A DNA stretch of 64,000 nt, from NCBI GenBank assembly GCA_963705255.1, contig OY970061.1, positions 32,001-96,000 on the forward strand. The letters run 5' to 3'. The notes under the pieces are model-generated. The model ran no database searches, had not been told where the DNA came from, and worked only from the letters and a program-made list of their open reading frames with translations. This document shows, piece by piece, positions 11,491 through 58,522 of the stretch (its first letter is position 1; each line of letters starts with the position of its first letter). Origin of the DNA: an uncultured Methanoregulaceae archaeon. Its GTDB lineage: Archaea > Halobacteriota > Methanomicrobia > Methanomicrobiales > Methanospirillaceae. Made by a program: the position numbers and the translations under genes.

Positions 11491-11548
11491 ACTGTCAAAT
11501 CGGGGACGTGAGCACATGAATTTTTCTGCGTCAGAAAAATATGAAAAA

Positions 11549-11928
11549 GGCTTTGTAGAGATCCTATTTTATCCTGTAATTTGATTATATTCTCCGCTGG
11601 TTATGAGGGTGACCCCCTCTCTCCCCCACTGGGGGAGGCAGCGAAAGTCTGACGACCTTCTCGATTTCGTAGTCTGATGACTACTCAATCAGCCCAAGGG
11701 GGGTATCCCCTTGAATCTCTGAGAGGTCTTCAGACCTCGAAGAGGAGAAGGGAGGCAAGAGCCGACCTTCGACCCGTCTATTATTCCTCTCCTTATCTCA
11801 GTGGTTTTTCATCAACCTTCTGAGGGGCTATCGCAATATGGGGGGCCCCGGCGGCGGGGGGGTGGAGGCATCAGATGCCGCAGCCCCCAAGAGCGTCTGC
11901 AATGAAAACCAATGATTTCTGCAGAGCC
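11549..11928 (+). mobile_element. MITE-like repeat family A, copy A1 (short form, imperfect TIRs)
   Basis: Left end GGCTTTGTAGAGATC; right end reverse complement GGCTCTGCAGAAATC; poly-A flanks. Core is near-identical to 16240-16440 (reverse) and 43272-43430. Confidence 0.8.
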
Positions 11929-11951
11929 AAAAAAAGAATTTGGTTTTCCTC

Positions 11952-16060: not shown

Positions 16061-16085
16061 GAGGGGGGTCCGGCAGATCAATATT

Positions 16086-16700
16086 CTGACGCTCTTGGGG
16101 ATGTCGACATGACAAAGTCATGGAGACAAGAGAAGAACGCATAAGCGTTCTTCGAATTTTCTGCAACCTGGGCACAGCGAAGATGCTCTCGAATCTTCTC
16201 GAGCCTGCCATGCCTTTGGCGATGGCAGCATCCCCCGAATTGCGATAGTCACTCAGAAGGTTGGCAGGAAATTCTTGAGAGAATGAGAGGAATAATAGAC
16301 GGGTCGAAGGTCGGCTCTTGCCTCCCTTCTCCTCTCCGAGGTCTGAAGACCTCTCAGAGATTCAAGGGGATACCCCCCTTGGGCTGATTGAGTGGTCATC
16401 AGATCACGAAATCGAGAAGATGCGTTAGCATCTTCGCTGCCCCCCCCTTCGGAGGAGACTGCTCTTCCCGAAGGGAAGAACAGGCTGGAGAATGTCGAAA
16501 GTCATCAGACTTGAGACAGGAGAAGACCGTAGGTCTTCGATCGAACTCGTCAGAGTTCTTCGATCTCCGAAGAGGTTCAACAGGACCTCGAGGATAAGAA
16601 GAACTCATCAGAGTTCTTCGATGTGAGAGAGAGGGGGTCACCCTCATGACATCTTCAAATGGTTTACAAAAAATGAACCGTGGAAGATTTCCACAGAGCA
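16086..16700 (-). mobile_element. MITE-like repeat family A, copy A2 (expanded with hairpin arrays)
   Basis: Reverse complement of the A1 scaffold. TIR-like TGCTCTGTGGAAATC at 16686-16700. Extra hairpin arrays at ~16100-16220 and 16455-16626. Confidence 0.8.
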
Positions 16701-31956: not shown

Positions 31957-32035
31957 GGTCGTGAAAAAATGCGGTTATTTCCAATGTTGTCCCGTCTCGG
32001 CCGGGGATGATGGTTCCGGGCCCTGCCACAAAAAA

Positions 32036-34884: not shown

Positions 34885-35120
34885 GGCTCTGGAGAAATGG
34901 ATGTGAACCAATCGGGTTCACGCTGAAACCATGAATTCGCTAAAATAGTCACATTGGGAGGGCCCCCCGCCTCAGGGCCTCTCCGAGGCACGGCGGGGCA
35001 AGGATATTTTTAGTCACTGATCCGCCGCGGGGGCGCCCCGCCGGGGGCGGCGGCGTTTATCATACTTGTGATGAAGAGGTAGCAACCTTATCAAATCTGA
35101 ATAATATGATTTTCATAAAA
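34885..35120 (+). mobile_element. MITE-like repeat family B, copy B1 (empty scaffold)
   Basis: Starts GGCTCTGGAGAAAT. Scaffold CCCCGCCTCAGGGCCTCTCCGAGGCACGGCGGGGCAAGG..GATCCGCCGCGGGGGCG is shared with 37949 and 56762. Confidence 0.78.
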
Positions 35121-36829: not shown

Positions 36830-37004
36830 TCTCTTTTTGTCCCTGGCCGGAACACCGTACTTCCGAAAACAGATTTAATACTCCCGAATGGTAGGCCCAA
36901 TGTCACTTTGCGTACCATCAGGCACGAGGATGCACGGGTTGTGGTTTGGATCAATCAAACGGCTGACTTAACGGGACCGATGTAAAAAATCTCCTGAACG
37001 AACT

Positions 37005-37605
37005 CTATTTTTTTCCGAAACCATAATGTTCCCGTAAAAATTTCCTGACCTTTTCAGACTCCAGATATCTCTCATCAAGCGTGTCAATAATTTTCTCGAT
37101 TATGTTCACCTGATCTGAGATGAGAGCACTTGTATTATCATCAAGCGTTGCAGTATCCAGCAAAATAGCCTGCAAGGGATTTCTGATCTTGTCATTGAGG
37201 ATCAACAACTGTTCCATATTGTGCTCAATCTGCTGGAACGCCTCCCTCTTCAATAGTTCGAGCTGCGTTTTACTGGCCCTGGAACTTTCAGCAAAATGCG
37301 AGATCACAATACCAAGAGAGACAAAGATGAAAAACCATGCAGTGTGAACTGCGATTATCCTCACAGAAAATGTTCCGAACACGTACACGAGTACGATGTA
37401 AACCCAGCCAAGGGCGATCGTGATCAGGATCCCCCTGCGGGGAAAAGCATATGCAGTCAGGAGCACCGGAACAAGGAAAAAATAGGGAAATATGTCATTG
37501 ATGCCATGGGACAGGTCTGAATACAGCAGTCAGTATTACTCCAAGTGAAGTTGCGATGATGAGATATATCCAGATGGTATTTTCATGGATGAAATTATGG
37601 GGCAT
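37005..37605 (-). CDS. Membrane sensor-like protein with degenerate HisKA helix (indels in 5' part)
   Basis: TM helices (AYAFPRRG), IEHNMEQL.ILNDKIRNPL. Paralog of the 7731 ORF without PAS. Confidence 0.65.
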
Positions 37606-37948
37606 TTCTCTCTCACCCTGTCTCATGGCTTGACAATCTACCATTCCTGGTTGTCAGAAACATCTCAAATTGTGGAGTAAGACATCCCCAATATGAATGC
37701 AGCCGAATGAAATGTCACCCGCAGCCCGGTATGCCGGGCCCTGACAGAGGTCTGCCATGGGCGGCATGAAGCGGCAGGTGATGGTACCTGCGCTTATCTC
37801 TAAAATTAAAAAGCGAAACAATATATTATTGTCTATTTGAAATTTTTAATATAGTTGCACTCTTTCCAGATACCGGAAGAACCGGTTCCACATTTATCGG
37901 ACTTTGTAACTACGAACGGTCGGAGACCGTTTAAAATAGTGAATAAAA

Positions 37949-38455
37949 TGCTCTGGAGAAACGGACATGAACCAATAACGTTCACTCCGGAACCATGAAA
38001 ATTGTTCAGTTACGAGAGCTCCCCGCCTCAGGGCCTCTCCGAAGAGTCAATCGTCGCGTCAGCGAGGATTGACTGGAGAAGAATCCTCATGGATTCTTCG
38101 ACTGCTTCATCCTGTACGGATGAAGCAGAGGAAGTTTGGAAAAACTTCCTCTTGCCGAGTCTCGGGAAAGATGAGGCACGGCGGGCAAGGAAGTTGATCC
38201 GCCGCGGGGGCGAGTCGAAAATTATCTATCCGAGAATTTTCTTCAGCCAGCCCCGACCATCTGGTCATGGCTGGCTCCCCGTTGAGGGCAGCGCCGAAGG
38301 CTGTGGAGAAGTGATAACTTCGAGTTCCGAAGAGGTTCATCGGAACCTAGAGGATGAAAAGAACTCGTCAGAGTTCTTCGAGTGCGGCGGCGTTCATCGC
38401 AATGGTAAAAGAGTGACAATCCGCCGTGAGATCTGAATAATACGATTTTCATAGA
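37949..38455 (+). mobile_element. MITE-like repeat family B, copy B2 (three filled slots)
   Basis: B1 scaffold interrupted by hairpin arrays at 38043-38174, ~38213-38276 and ~38290-38385. Confidence 0.8.
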
Positions 38456-38509
38456 AAACGCTTCCCGGATTGAGATACGTTCAAATCCAATAAACAACGA
38501 TTCCCGTTC

Positions 38510-39745: not shown

Positions 39746-39997
39746 TAATCAACTAGTGAGTAGGAAATTTCCCATGAAATTAGTGATGGACGTCGCCGCC
39801 CCTTGGGGACGCCTCTGCTTCGGTTCAGTGACTTTTCATGGTGGGATACAGGTAAGTGAGTAGCGCAAAACCCGACGAGGCGTTTTGCGCGTAGGGCATC
39901 GCTGCGGTCAGATATTTTTTTTAAAGGTAACAATATGTAAGTAAGTTCAAGAAGAGTCACATCAGATCCGTATCTCAGGACAGAGGAATGGATACCC

Positions 39998-42921: not shown

Positions 42922-43070
42922 AAATATTATCGTGATCCGGGAACAGGAAATATGATATCCTGAATTCGTTTTACTCAGTTGCAGAGAAAACTCCTTTGAA
43001 TAACTGAGCACCCGTTCAGCCGGTACCTTTCTCCAGAAAGCCTGTTCTGGAGTCTCGCATTCTTCAACAG

Positions 43071-43465
43071 TTATGAGTGTGACCCCATCTCTCATGTCGA
43101 AGAACCCTGATGAGTTCTTCTTATCCTTTGGTCCTGATGAACCTCTTCGAAAATCGGAGAGGTTTCTCAAAACCTCGACGAGGAGAAGGGAGGCGTGAGC
43201 CGACCTTCGACGTGATCGAAGAACCTGCCATTCTTCTTCAGCCTGCTCTTCCCTTCAAGAACAGCAGTCTCCCCAGTGGGGGAGGCAGCGAAGATGCTAA
43301 CGCATCTTCTCGATTTCGTGATCAGATGACCACTCAATCAGCCCAAGGGGAGCATCCCCTTGAATCTCTGAGAGGTCTTCAGACCTCGAAGAGGAGAAGG
43401 GAGGCAAGAGCCGACCTTCGACCCCTCTTTTTATCCCCCTTCTTTTCAAAAGATTTTTGCTTCAA
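43071..43465 (+). mobile_element. MITE-like repeat family A, copy A3 (expanded, ends truncated)
   Basis: A1 scaffold with a 178-bp hairpin array at 43094-43271. Confidence 0.8.
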
Positions 43466-54445: not shown

Positions 54446-56707
54446 ATGACAAGAGAGATGCTCCTTATGAACGATGCGCTGGAGGCCTACCTGTCCGGGC
54501 TCTCGTTTTCAGCGCAGGGAAAACACGGGGAGGCCCTCCTCTCGTTTGAGCACTCGCTGGCGCTGGACCCCGGAAACGCAGGTGCGTGGATCGGCAGGGG
54601 GCTTGCGCTCGCTTATCTCGGCCAGTACGAGCCGTGCGTCCAGGCATTCGACCGGGCGATCGCCCTGAATGAAAATGACGAGATCACCTGGTACAACCGG
54701 GGAATTGCCTTCCATATCCTGAAACATGACGAGGAAGCCATCCTCTCGTTCGACCGCGTGCTCCGGATCGCCCCCTCCCATACCCTTGCATGGGCGGGAA
54801 AAGCCCGGTCCTACGCCGCCCTTGAACATTACCGGGAGGCCATCGATGCCTATGACCGGTCGCTGGGCTATGGCACCGACGAGGTGAACTCGTGGACGGG
54901 GAAAGCCAACGCATACTTCGAACTGGACCAGTACGGGGAGGCACTCGCCTCGTTTGAGAAGGCGCTGGCCCTCGATGCCGGGCACACCCATTCCCTGAAC
55001 GGAAGGGCAGCGGTCCTGATGGAACTGGGGAGGATCGACGAATCGATCGGGACCTTTGAGAAGGTGCTGGCCCTCGATCCCGATAATGTCACTGCCCTGG
55101 CCGGCAGGGCCCAGGGAATGATCGTCTGCAGACGGTACGATACCGCTCTCGGGGACCTGGAACATGCGATACGGGTCGACGGACAGGACGCCAAGTCCTG
55201 GTACCTCCAGGGAGTCGCGCTCGGGTTATCCGGCAGAACGGACGAGGCATTCCACGCGTTTGGCCAGGCCCTCGCATTCAACCCGAATATAGCCCTCGTA
55301 TGGTACACCCAGGACGATCTCATCCATTTCATCGTCCGGGACCAGGACGAGATCAGGGCTTTCGGGCGCTCGCTGCCCATTGACCCCAACGTGAGTGAGG
55401 TCTGGTCGAGCCATGCCTACGGGCTCTCGCGGTCCGGAAGGTATGAAGAGTCCCTGCAGGAATATGAGAAGGAACTTGGCCTTGCCCCCGACTCGACCCT
55501 GCTCTGGTACAACAAAGGAGTTTCCCTCGACAGCCTCGGGCGGTACGAGGATGCCCTCCGCGCCTACGAAATGGCGGTCCTGAAAAATCCGGATCTGGCT
55601 GCCGCATGGTACAATAAAGCGCTGGTGCATGTGTATCTCGGGGAATACAGCAAGGCGCTCGAGTCCTGTGACCGGGCACTTGCAATCGACCAGAATTCGG
55701 CAGCCACCTGGTTCAACAAGGGAATCGTTTTCGGGTTACAGGGGAAGTACGAGATGGCGCTTGCTGCGTTCAACCGGGCGCTTTCGATCGCCCCGAAGAT
55801 GGCTTCGGCCTGGTTCAACCGCGGGGTAGCATTCCGCAGGCTCGGCCGGCATGCCGAAGCCGCGGAGTCGTACGACCGGGCGATCTCGTTTGACCGCGGT
55901 CTCATGACGGCATGGTTCAACAAGTCCTCGGAACTTGTCCGGACGGGAGCGTGGAAAGAAGCCCTGCAGGCCATCGGGATTGCACTCTCCATCCGTCAGA
56001 ACGATGCAGTGAGCTGGTACGTGAAAGGATTTGCCCATGCCAACCTGAAACAGGGCCGCGAAGCACAAGCGGCCCTGGACAAGGCGCGGGCGATCGATAC
56101 GAAACTGTACCTTGTCCAGTACCCGTTCGGCGGCGTCCTCTATCTCTCCCGTACCTACCATCCCGTATCCGCCGATGATGCCCGGAGCCGTGCCCCCGGA
56201 CAGGGCGATGCCCGGTCCTGGTACGAGAAGGGGGTGACCCTCTACCGCGGTTACCATTACGAGGAAGCTGTTGGTGCTGTCGACCGGGCCCTTGCGCTCG
56301 ATGCCGGGACCGCCCGGTCGTGGGTTCTCAGGGGGCTCGCGCTCCATAAACTCGGGAGGTACGAAGAGTCCCTCGTCTCGCTCGGCCATGCCCTTGCATC
56401 CGATCCGGAGAACTACAAGACATGGAATATCCGGGGGCTAGTCCATAAAAAACTCCATGACCTGCCATCCGCGCTTGCGGATTTCGATCATGCACTGGCC
56501 CTCAACCCGGGAATTGCCGGCAGCTGGCTGAACCGGGGAGTTATCCTCCTCCAGCTGAACCGTGACCGTGAAGCGGTCGATTCCCTTGAGCGTGCAGTCT
56601 CCCTGGGTTCCGGGGACAGGCGGGCCCTCAACGCCCTCGCGTATGCAAAGAAGAGGGTTGCAGCACCTGCGGGCCGGAGCGTGCAGAAAAAGGGATTGCC
56701 CGGGTGA
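54446..56707 (+). CDS. Large tetratricopeptide-repeat protein
   Basis: Many TPR units (AWYNKG..L..LGRYEEA...FDRAL..DP). Confidence 0.92.
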   Translation: MTREMLLMNDALEAYLSGLSFSAQGKHGEALLSFEHSLALDPGNAGAWIGRGLALAYLGQYEPCVQAFDRAIALNENDEITWYNRGIAFHILKHDEEAILSFDRVLRIAPSHTLAWAGKARSYAALEHYREAIDAYDRSLGYGTDEVNSWTGKANAYFELDQYGEALASFEKALALDAGHTHSLNGRAAVLMELGRIDESIGTFEKVLALDPDNVTALAGRAQGMIVCRRYDTALGDLEHAIRVDGQDAKSWYLQGVALGLSGRTDEAFHAFGQALAFNPNIALVWYTQDDLIHFIVRDQDEIRAFGRSLPIDPNVSEVWSSHAYGLSRSGRYEESLQEYEKELGLAPDSTLLWYNKGVSLDSLGRYEDALRAYEMAVLKNPDLAAAWYNKALVHVYLGEYSKALESCDRALAIDQNSAATWFNKGIVFGLQGKYEMALAAFNRALSIAPKMASAWFNRGVAFRRLGRHAEAAESYDRAISFDRGLMTAWFNKSSELVRTGAWKEALQAIGIALSIRQNDAVSWYVKGFAHANLKQGREAQAALDKARAIDTKLYLVQYPFGGVLYLSRTYHPVSADDARSRAPGQGDARSWYEKGVTLYRGYHYEEAVGAVDRALALDAGTARSWVLRGLALHKLGRYEESLVSLGHALASDPENYKTWNIRGLVHKKLHDLPSALADFDHALALNPGIAGSWLNRGVILLQLNRDREAVDSLERAVSLGSGDRRALNALAYAKKRVAAPAGRSVQKKGLPG

Positions 56708-56761: not shown

Positions 56762-57225
56762 ATTATGAGGGTTCCCCGCCTCAGGGCCTCTCCGAGGAGT
56801 CAATCGTCGCGCCAGCGAGGATTGACTGGAGAAGAATCCGCAAGGATTCTTCGACTTGCTTCATCCTGTACGGATGAAGCAGAGGAAGTTTGGAAAAACT
56901 TCCTCTTGCTGAATCTTGTAAAAGATGAGGCACGGCGGGGCAAGGAAGTTGAACCGCCGCTGGGTTAAGTTGAAAATTCTCTGTCAGAGAATTTTCTTCA
57001 GCCCGCCCTGACTATCGGGTCACGGCTGGCATCCCGTTGGGGATAATCCCACGAATGCATACTCCTCGGGAAAGTAATACAGCACTATCCCTGAGCGCAG
57101 GGAAGGTCGGGCGACATACCAGCCTGAAGGCTGGTGTGGTGCGCAGAAGATTTCCAGCGGAAATCTTCGAGGGGACAGGCACTGTCCCCTCCGTCATCAT
57201 TCATGCGTGATATTTTTTTCTAATA
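56762..57225 (+). mobile_element. MITE-like repeat family B, copy B3 (filled slots)
   Basis: Scaffold and slots 1-2 match B2; slot 3 (~57045-57190) holds different hairpins. Confidence 0.8.
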
Positions 57226-57316
57226 AAAATAGTCGGAAGAATTCTCATTCGCCCTGAACCACGGATCACTCAAATCTTCAGGAAAAGAATATTTTTACGA
57301 AGAAGAGGGAAAATAA

Positions 57317-58522
57317 TTATTTTTTCCTTGACTTTCTCTTCATCTGCATCTGCCTGACCATACGTCCCTGGATGCCGAAGTAGTTGGAGACGCCTATCGC
57401 ATGGCACTGGTCTATAGACGCACTGTCGAATGAGACGAGGTCGCTGGAATAGATTGCGTCAGGAGAGCTCCTGCCGAGCACCCGGGCACTCCCCTTGTAC
57501 AGTTCAAGGTCAACCGTACCGTTTACCCGCTCCTGCGTGGTATCAATAAACGCATTCAGTGCCGTATAAAGCGGTTCGTACACGAGCCCCTTGTAGGCGA
57601 GTTCGGACCACGTGTCATCGACCATTCTCTTGAAGGCGAGTTCCTGCCGGGTAAGTACCAGCCCCTCGAGGTCGCGGTGGGCCAGGAGGATGACCGTGGC
57701 TGCCGGGTGCTCGTAGTTCTCCCGCGCCTTGAGGCCGAGGATCCGGTCTTCGATCAGGTCATTGCGGCCGATGCCGTGCTTCCCTGCAAGGGCGTTAAGC
57801 TTCTGGATCAGGTCGTAGCCCCCGAGTTTCTTCCCGTTCAGCGCCACCGGGACGCCGCCCTGGAAAGTAAGCGTGATCTTCGCCGGTTTATCCGGGGCGT
57901 CCTGGGGCGAGGCAGTCCAGAGATAGATCTCTTCGGGGGGGTGGAATGCGGGGTCTTCGAGGCGCCCTCCCTCGATGCTCCGGCTCCAGCAGTTCTCGTC
58001 CATGCTCCACGGCTTCTCTTTTTTGACGGGGACGGGGATGTCATGCTGCTGGGCATACTCAATCTCCCAGTCCCGGGTGAGGTTCAGTTCACGTATGGGG
58101 GCCACGACTTCGAGCCCGGCGCTGCGGATGATGAAATCGAACCGGAGCTGGTCGTTGCCCTTGCCCGTGCACCCGTGGCCTATGGCCGTTGCTCCTTCCT
58201 TCCGGGCGATCTTCACCACTTCTTCTGCTATGAGCGGGCGGGCAAGGGAAGTACCCATGGGGTAGCCCTCGTATGAACCGTTCGCCTTTATCGCCGGGAA
58301 GATATGCTCCCTGACAAACCGTTCCCGTACATCGATGGTATAATGGCGGTCGGCCATCTTTCTGCCTTTTCTGGTTGCAACCTCAATCTCTTCGTCCCGC
58401 TGGCCGACATGTACGGCAACCGTGACCACGCGATCGTACTCGTAGCGCTCCTTGAGGAGCGGGATGCAGATGGAGGTGTCAAGCCCCCCGGAATATGCAA
58501 GAACTATGGTGCCTTTTCCCAT
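57317..58522 (-). CDS. argG: Argininosuccinate synthase
   Basis: [31 protein letters not shown]. Confidence 0.97.

Follow-up and report, generated by a model that had tools for sequence, protein, structure and literature searches.

The repeats treated here invite comparison with BOX, a repeat of Streptococcus pneumoniae and S. suis with the layout boxA-(boxB)n-boxC (Croucher et al. 2011, PMC3049150). In the accessible part of that report, BOX is non-coding, strongly folded and similar to a transposable element of the miniature inverted-repeat type (MITE). Its ends are conserved modules, and between them lie self-folding internal modules whose number varies between strains, two different frames in S. 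suis enclose one common internal module, and a similarity of the ends to a resident insertion sequence (IS) has been proposed. The same traits recur in family B, a repeat of the archaeal genus Methanoregula, one copy of which, B3 (56762–57253, plus strand), is the subject of this study. It lies in a window of 64,000 nucleotides (positions 32,001–96,000 of contig OY970061.1, assembly GCA_963705255.1), the whole stretch of DNA that was analysed, in a Methanoregula genome that consists of a single contig of 2,600,650 bp and is rated 89.5% complete. Coordinates of B1, B2, B3, the family-A copies and a hairpin at 39850–39901 are window positions, while other copies (e.g., 553119 and 1151359) are named by genome position.

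The accessible part of a 2024 review places archaeal MITEs in Sulfolobus, Halobacterium, Haloquadratum and Desulfurococcus, with Methanoregula not among them (PMC10969869), and our literature search found no paper describing these Methanoregula repeats. We interpret B3 as a decayed, 5'-truncated composite MITE and family B as one body type of a Methanoregula MITE superfamily with IS5-type ends. To this reading as a whole, in which the superfamily consists of IS5-type MITEs with BOX-like modules rather than of a stand-alone RNA gene or of repetitive extragenic palindromes (REPs) clustered in bacterial interspersed mosaic elements (BIMEs), we assign a probability of roughly 0.7. The repeats are selfish DNA, unusual mainly for their modular build. 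A preliminary description, made from the letters of the window, had noted a frame with variable slots and implied a structured-RNA family; its observations are confirmed in part, and its interpretation is partly supported.

Family-B frame, its ends and a probable IS5-family partner

The frame of family B consists of two GC-rich stem domains, D1 and D2, with hairpin units at fixed junctions. The 22-nt start of D1, searched on both strands, occurs in 20 exact copies in the genome and in 47 copies at up to four mismatches, and the elements are 55–616 nt long. In the full element, a left end starting GGCTCTGG is followed by a small hairpin (CATGAAC..GTTCA), by CCATGAAAATCG and by D1, where a closing stem and the hairpin GCCTC-TCC-GAGG come before slot 1. 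D1 and D2 are joined by an AT-rich linker that varies in length. D2 has an outer stem of 7 bp (CCGCCGC/GCGGCGG), then GGGG, slot 2 (preceding or following GCG), an inner hairpin (CCCC-GYC-GGGG) and slot 3; the tail ends in CGATTTTCAT. This frame was parsed in 46 copies of the genome and in 80 copies from other genomes, and the conserved frame with defined insertion points that had been proposed is thus real. The number of insertion points had been set too low at three, as slot 2 has two positions and both the D1–D2 linker and the tail accept inserts too. Slot 1 is filled in 22 of the 46 parsed copies. The GAGG repeat once taken as its boundary is not general: read by eye, the 22 inserts end in GAGG in eight cases, in GAG in four and otherwise in ten.

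For family B, terminal inverted repeats and target duplications are most evident in copies from other genomes. Among the 80 foreign loci anchored by D1, a left terminal repeat lies within 130 nt upstream in 36, and 23 of these also have an inverted right repeat, 248–685 nt from the left end. In a comparison of the eight flank letters outside both ends, at least seven of the eight agreed in 12 of the 23 loci, five of them perfect (L063, L091, L108, L112 and L121). L112 is a complete 253-bp element in which left end, small hairpin, D1, D2, tail and right end follow one another between two copies of GAAAAATT, and L063 is a 418-bp element with D1, D2, a module termed C tail and the terminal hairpin of that module, enclosed by two copies of CTGAATTG. 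In the genome under study, a search for inverted pairs of the terminal repeat (end set at GGCTCTG, 100–900 nt apart, two mismatches allowed, settings that admit many chance pairs) gave 80 pairs; 14 of these have a flank match of at least 7/8, seven of them perfect, compared with a mean of 0.32 and a maximum of three in 500 flank permutations. The motif GCTCTGNAGAAA, at up to one mismatch, has 115 matches vs. 40 for the reversed control pattern. Fifty of the matches fall in repeat loci, and 48 of these face inward from a position no more than 30 nt from the locus edge.

Transposases of both the ISL3 and the IS5 type were tested as partners of the MITE ends. DDE_Tnp_1 genes are present in 75 of 108 genomes of the genus, and at 13 of 30 DDE_Tnp_1 loci the MITE terminal repeats stand around the gene, about 1,006 nt apart. 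The IS at L316 is flanked on both sides by AATATCTT, an 8-bp duplication, and its 313-aa protein matches the IS5 family transposase model NF033579 of NCBIfam at 218.9 bits (cut-off 140) as well as DDE_Tnp_1 of Pfam. Since the inverted GGCTCTG ends and the 8-bp duplication match the 1,006-bp IS5-family IS, family-B elements can be regarded as MITEs of that IS. An IS5-family DDE transposase would have moved them in trans, by cut-and-paste. In the genome under study, the IS5-family transposase survives in broken relics only (1987570–1988099, 1149229–1149426 and 1683207–1683365), one of them 60% identical over residues 141–301 with four internal stops, one 72% identical over 58 residues and the third short. 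The copies found here would consequently be stranded, their ends eroding.

Other candidate movers were rejected. ISL3 is absent here and occurs in 14 of the 108 genus genomes; a complete copy, L294, matches the MITE ends in the first six letters only, and 11 of the 12 ISL3 loci have no matching end pair, the pair at L305 adjoining the ISL3 fragment rather than enclosing it. At that locus (1747–2742, genome G088), perfect 18-nt inverted ends of MITE type stand 996 nt apart beside the weak ISL3-like fragment, and G088 has 26 scored DDE_Tnp_1 matches (189 first-look candidates). Three TnpB-like genes were found, none near a repeat. An HNH-like open reading frame (ORF) in copy 553119 was considered as the enzyme, but it has homologs in only 5 of 107 genus genomes, none flanked by the frame, and is a passenger. 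This ORF, AT-rich, antisense and 207 aa long, occupies the D1–D2 linker (552473–553093; L270 574–1197) and carries a C-terminal hint of a zinc ribbon; the HNH-like motif is a reading by eye, and Pfam gave no HNH family. Another D1–D2 linker, at about 370–700 of L079 (minus strand) in a different Methanoregula genome, holds a short open frame for a peptide of about 65 aa that looks hydrophobic by eye.

B3, a composite copy

B3 has the layout of the complete 418-bp element L063, minus the left arm and plus extra hairpins; a left terminal repeat was looked for upstream of it and none was found. Its D1 (56774–56940; plus strand, as are all parts of B3) is closed by CCCCGCC (56774–56780) pairing with GGCGGGG (56934–56940) and contains the small hairpin GCCTC-TCC-GAGG at 56786–56797, directly followed by a slot-1 array of five hairpins (56798–56926). 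The limits that the preliminary description gave for this array hold, with CTCC-GAGG at 56790–56797 and GAGG-CACGG at 56927–56935 on either side of the 129-nt insert, and the uninterrupted string CTCC-GAGG-CACGG was found in B1 at 34981–34993. All four hairpins named there are present. The first had been given as too short; it extends over about 12 bp and includes one G-G mismatch, and a weak fifth exists. In the minimum-energy fold of D1 with its insert, the closing stem surrounds the small hairpin, the four named hairpins and the weak fifth.

The same array type is present in five copies of the genome and in the ortholog of B2 in strain L187. B2 carries it, as had been reported, but at 38045–38172 instead of 38043–38174, and with GAAG rather than GAGG as its left boundary. 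The differences between the B2 and B3 arrays that had been placed in loops (TCAT vs. GCAA and GTCA vs. GCCA) were borne out.

Downstream of D1, B3 retains half of D2 (56954–57042): the 5' arm CCGCCGC at 56954–56960, a slot-2 module and the inner hairpin CCC-GTT-GGGG at 57033–57042. The slot-2 module, with the hairpins GAAAATTCTC/GAGAATTTTC and AGCC..GGCT, is common to 12 other copies. The 3' arm of D2 (GCGGCGG) is missing, and another repeat module, the C tail (57043–57191), begins at about 57043. It contains a two-hairpin cassette, CCAGCC-TGAA-GGCTGG (57119–57134) and GAAGATTTCC-AGC-GGAAATCTTC (57146–57168), and ends in the conserved hairpin GAGGGGACAG-GCA-CTGTCCCCTC (57169–57191), which recurs at L066, L075, L092, L105, L127, L128, L129, L133 and L135. 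These three hairpins had been described as the content of a slot 3 that differs from that of B2. They exist, but the region is not homologous to slot 3 of B2 and belongs to the C tail. Two parts of the C tail, one around 57070–57102 and the other the terminal hairpin, recur at other Methanoregula loci and in the genome itself at 1151359–1151437. Their spacing is about 10 nt at the latter copy, which has no cassette, vs. 68 nt in B3, and the 68-nt spacer with its two hairpins thus indicates that a two-hairpin cassette occupies yet another frame. At 57235–57253, comparison with the right end of L063, to which the similarity is partial, gives B3 a putative right terminal inverted repeat in degenerate form.

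The two other family-B copies of the window differ in slot content. B1 (34885–35116, plus strand) is a minimal element: none of its slots is filled, and its left terminal repeat begins with GGCTCTGG. B2 (37949–38461, plus strand) has slots 1, 2 and 3 all filled. Both keep the left terminal repeat only, and B3 keeps only the putative degenerate right one.

Hairpin cassettes, paired stems and turnover

The frames (D1, D2, C tail and others) hold from one up to six hairpin units, placed at the fixed G-rich junctions CGAG^G and GGGG^GCG. Slot inserts are strings of hairpins, in which a variable hairpin typically alternates with a unit of the form GAGAAG-stem-loop-stem-CTTCGA. The genome has 270 GAGAAG..CTTCGA sites, with about seven expected by chance on a rough estimate, and 174 of the 270 pair without gaps down to a loop of 3–4 nt, vs. 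15 of 270 when the inner letters are shuffled. Identical hairpin units occur in unrelated frames. Outside the MITE body, a repeated hairpin frame, GCGCAAAAC..GTTTTGCGC, is empty at 39850–39901 of the window and holds units in its loop at 704950, 2113997 and 136716; the cassette of the 2113997 copy has CGAG on both sides, like slot 1.

Within the MITE reading, dispersed copies would acquire, lose and trade hairpin units through unequal crossing-over, gene conversion or template switching, an exchange for which the conserved frame arms and the hairpin feet would supply the homology. Alternatively, cassettes of a variable hairpin and a GAGAAG..CTTCGA hairpin may be tiny elements in their own right, with the MITEs only their preferred landing pads, a view that we find doubtful. 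Such cassettes would insert head to tail and on one strand at CGAG^G and GGGG^GCG, in loops of several unrelated frames (those of D1 and D2, of the C tail, of family A and of the GCGCAAAAC..GTTTTGCGC hairpin), by way of a single-stranded intermediate and an enzyme or a template-switch route.

The units could also be REP-like and their arrays BIME-like clusters, spread on single-stranded DNA (ssDNA) by a REP-associated tyrosine transposase (RAYT). They are short, near-perfect palindromes in intergenic mosaics, their structure is strand-specific, and C-GNA-G triloops are frequent among them (GAA 26, GCA 16, GTA 7). Such triloops are stable as DNA mini-hairpins. We nevertheless regard this origin as very improbable. 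The Y1 transposase family PF01797 has no match in the genome (89.5% complete), the control being positive in 6 of 14 known genomes, and the GAGAAG..CTTCGA units within B frames are without exception (40/40) co-oriented with the frame, head to tail. This commonest unit has GA feet on both sides and lacks an unpaired tag GTAG or CGTC (in the one unit type with CGTC, these letters lie inside the stem), and the elements that contain the units have DDE-type ends and 8-bp duplications.

Pairing is kept in the stems, where compensatory changes occur, and A-C mismatches are outnumbered by G-T pairs. A comparison of stems with loops, as suggested in the preliminary description, was made for six copies of the slot-1 array and shows the stems to be better conserved than the loops: 12 of 24 columns vary in hairpin loops, 30 of 124 in stems (Fisher p = 0.014) and 6 of 24 in linkers. 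Among 171 hairpins of the GAGAAG type, 785 of 805 pairs are Watson-Crick, nine are G-T and two C-A. When a covariance model of D2 was made from 17 copies of the genome and run on the 80 foreign loci, it gave 71 matches. In these 71 copies, whose alignment is fitted to the model, 8 of 11 pairs are changed on both sides (11 cells), a number reached in none of 500 shuffles, with at most one in slid controls; the alignment contains 26 G-T pairs vs. six A-C mismatches (binomial p = 0.0005, a value that ignores relatedness). The apex of D1 covaries among copies of the genome, with CCTC/GAGG vs. CCCC/GGGG and loops TTCG or TACG. These patterns would suggest that the element's strand takes a single-stranded form on which selection or biased repair acts, and RNA or ssDNA would both fit.

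Paired stems of this kind raise the possibility that family B represents a structured non-coding RNA gene in many copies, or an RNA element of untranslated regions, a scaffold that tolerates expansion hairpins and whose stems are kept for RNA function. Besides the compensated D2 pairs, the G-T excess and the UUCG and UACG loops of frame hairpins, the identity of a 24-nt D1 anchor in more than 114 loci of many species speaks for it, as does the strong fold of B3: positions 56767–57195 fold at −226.2 kcal/mol, compared with −149.3 ± 6.2 in 100 shuffles (z −12.4), and the opposite strand at −209.1 kcal/mol (z −10.2), so that the element strand is more stable by 17 kcal/mol. However, we consider an RNA gene unlikely. 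Rfam gave no match at gathering score in the window and none at E ≤ 1 inside any element (12 loci), and no conserved promoter-like spacing was seen upstream (by eye). Copies do not occupy orthologous sites but come and go between relatives. The 39 stem substitutions in the six close slot-1 copies mostly break the pair, several turn it into G-T, and none is a double change. Against the structured-RNA family that had been implied stand, above all, the IS5-family terminal inverted repeats and 8-bp target duplications of complete copies and an orientation independent of neighbouring genes (12 same, 13 opposite in tandem gaps).

Two candidate RNA motifs were considered. For a K-turn, the GA..GA feet give a symmetric 2x2 tandem G-A loop without the 3-nt bulge. 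A hammerhead-like or box C-like unit in copy 1268369 (CTGATGAG..CGAA) was rejected, as its core letters are absent from other copies and its locus has no Rfam match.

Slot contents are re-assorted among copies, and they differ between strains that are 94–97% identical. Copies 622765 and 112329 have slot 3 in common and differ in slot 1, and slot 3 of B2 matches that of 1333086, a copy with an empty slot 1. Relatives of about 83% identity lack B1 and B2 at the corresponding loci. B2 lies within a 1.65-kb stretch (36830–38480) that is missing from these relatives and present in the two closest contigs; the stretch also holds a 153-aa minus-strand ORF (37005–37466) without a Pfam match. A relative of about 90% identity (L188) has a family-A element at the site of B1 instead. 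In L187, a metagenome contig with flanks 94–97% identical, orthologs of both B1 and B2 are present in altered form. In the B1 ortholog, a two-hairpin cassette occupies D2, which is empty here, the 3' tail is different, and the replaced segment extends beyond the 3' end of the element into flanking DNA. Slot 1 is retained in the B2 ortholog, its substitutions falling mostly in loops, and slots 2 and 3 together have 74 nt there vs. 175 nt here.

Several points weigh against our reading of B3 and family B as IS5-type MITEs. None of B1, B2 and B3 has a clean right terminal repeat or a target duplication, 18 family-B copies of the genome that have a candidate left repeat lack a convincing target duplication, and it is homology to complete elements elsewhere that makes B1–B3 members of the MITE superfamily. 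Likewise, it is the shared ends, and nothing else, that point to transposition by the IS5 enzyme. The copies are mutually related, and the statistics therefore overstate their independence. A recombination mechanism for the cassettes is suggested by analogy with the boxB arrays of BOX, for which recombination or template switching between copies is proposed in the accessible part of the report (PMC3049150); simple conversion between copies does not explain the replacement in L187, since it runs into the flank. Finally, a DDE transposase needs the ends only, so that mobility alone leaves the D2 compensation, the G-T excess and the UUCG/UACG loops unexplained, and these could reflect an RNA-level role.

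Genomic setting and comparison with known systems

The superfamily as a whole comprises 278 intergenic loci and 52 kb, about 2% of the genome; these intergenic counts, like the gap types below, rest on crude gene calls. Family A, which has hairpin units and the terminal repeat in common with family B, is represented in the window by mosaic copies at 11540–11934, 16074–16699 (expanded, with many hairpin units) and 43058–43457. Its basic element measures about 250 bp, and expanded copies of 350–540 bp hold hairpin units at internal points. The superfamily overall is spread evenly, while family-B frames are uneven, with 44 of the 47 within the first 1.7 Mb of the 2.6-Mb contig. No strand polarity of copies along the chromosome was seen, the GC skew being weak.

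Family B is a repeat of the genus. Within the genome collection, more than 114 stretches contain the exact 24-mer of D1, and 77 of 80 fetched loci bear the title Methanoregula, Methanoregulaceae or Methanomicrobiales. With the B1 locus as query, at least four matches were found in each of 18 genomes of the same genus, compared with one or two, to the flanking genes only, in each of 12 genomes from the order's other genera. Viral contigs contained no exact match to the 24-nt anchor. The anchor was also seen on contigs binned as Dehalococcoidia, Nitrospirota (2.35 Mb) and Rokubacteria (2.2 Mb, near its start) (L064, L099 and L116), for which mis-binning, chimeric assembly or transfer may be responsible.

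The genes that flank B1–B3 are ordinary housekeeping genes. B3 itself stands between a convergent pair, a TPR-protein gene (stop at 56707) and an argininosuccinate synthase gene (57317–58522, minus strand), with a stop codon on one side of the element and a run of seven T on the other. Convergent gaps hold 17 of the 47 family-B copies, the remainder lying in divergent gaps (five) and in tandem gaps in the same (12) or opposite (13) direction; genome-wide, 439 of 2,479 gaps (17.7%) are convergent, and the excess is significant (p = 0.003). This enrichment and the setting of B3 are what one might expect if the host had co-opted the elements as intergenic 3'-end devices, such as transcript stabilisers, termination aids or protein-binding sites, with selection keeping the hairpins, and structured bacterial repeats are reported to influence the expression of neighbouring genes (accessible part of PMC3049150). 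We consider such a role quite unlikely, because purifying selection against harmful insertions would also produce such an enrichment, the orientation of the copies relative to neighbouring genes is random and their presence is not conserved at orthologous sites. A coding function was also rejected. B2 has an open frame of 144 aa, but over the 47 copies forward frames are no longer than reverse ones, and the longest elements are closed.

Taken as MITEs, these loci gain a name as a repeat superfamily across the genus Methanoregula, together with a likely motor. Their slot-and-cassette build, with covarying stems and strand bias, offers a natural case for studying how short hairpins spread and stay paired in selfish DNA. 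For genome annotation, the intergenic stretches concerned are repeats that change faster than their flanks, and screens based on folding will mistake such loci for structured RNA genes.

Like IS5-derived prokaryotic MITEs, family-B elements are small and non-coding, have ends that match an IS of the genus and a duplication of equal length (8 bp), reside in AT-rich intergenic targets and differ in presence or absence between relatives. They depart from such MITEs in their interior, a mosaic of structured domains with slot-wise variation, and in a partner IS that is reduced to relics in their own genome. Repetitive hairpin-forming and double-hairpin elements are described from mitochondrial genomes (PMC2800124). 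Like the units of family B, such elements are tiny hairpins or double hairpins without an enzyme of their own, spread through intergenic DNA and into other repeats. The mitochondrial elements belong to organelle genomes, have unrelated sequences and are not housed in IS-derived frames.

REPs and BIMEs associated with RAYT resemble family B in being mosaics that lie between genes and are built of short, GC-containing palindromes whose stems and loops are heterogeneous (accessible parts of PMC3733652 and PMC2817692). According to the same parts, REPs in BIMEs alternate and head-to-tail dimers are rare. REPs and BIMEs are thus distinguished by alternating units, a GTAG/CGTC tag and a Y1 enzyme, whereas the mosaics of family B run head to tail, are untagged and sit inside DDE-type MITEs.

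The likeness to BOX is one of build and not of homology, as there is no sequence relation and the host of family B is an archaeon. Family B has at least four insertion points per element, compared with one in BOX. Its units are hairpins of many kinds that keep a constant foot under a covarying top and are often joined in two-hairpin cassettes, whereas BOX holds tandem copies of one 45-nt box; and, unlike those of BOX, the units of family B also populate frames outside the MITE body, such as the repeated hairpin seen at 39850–39901.

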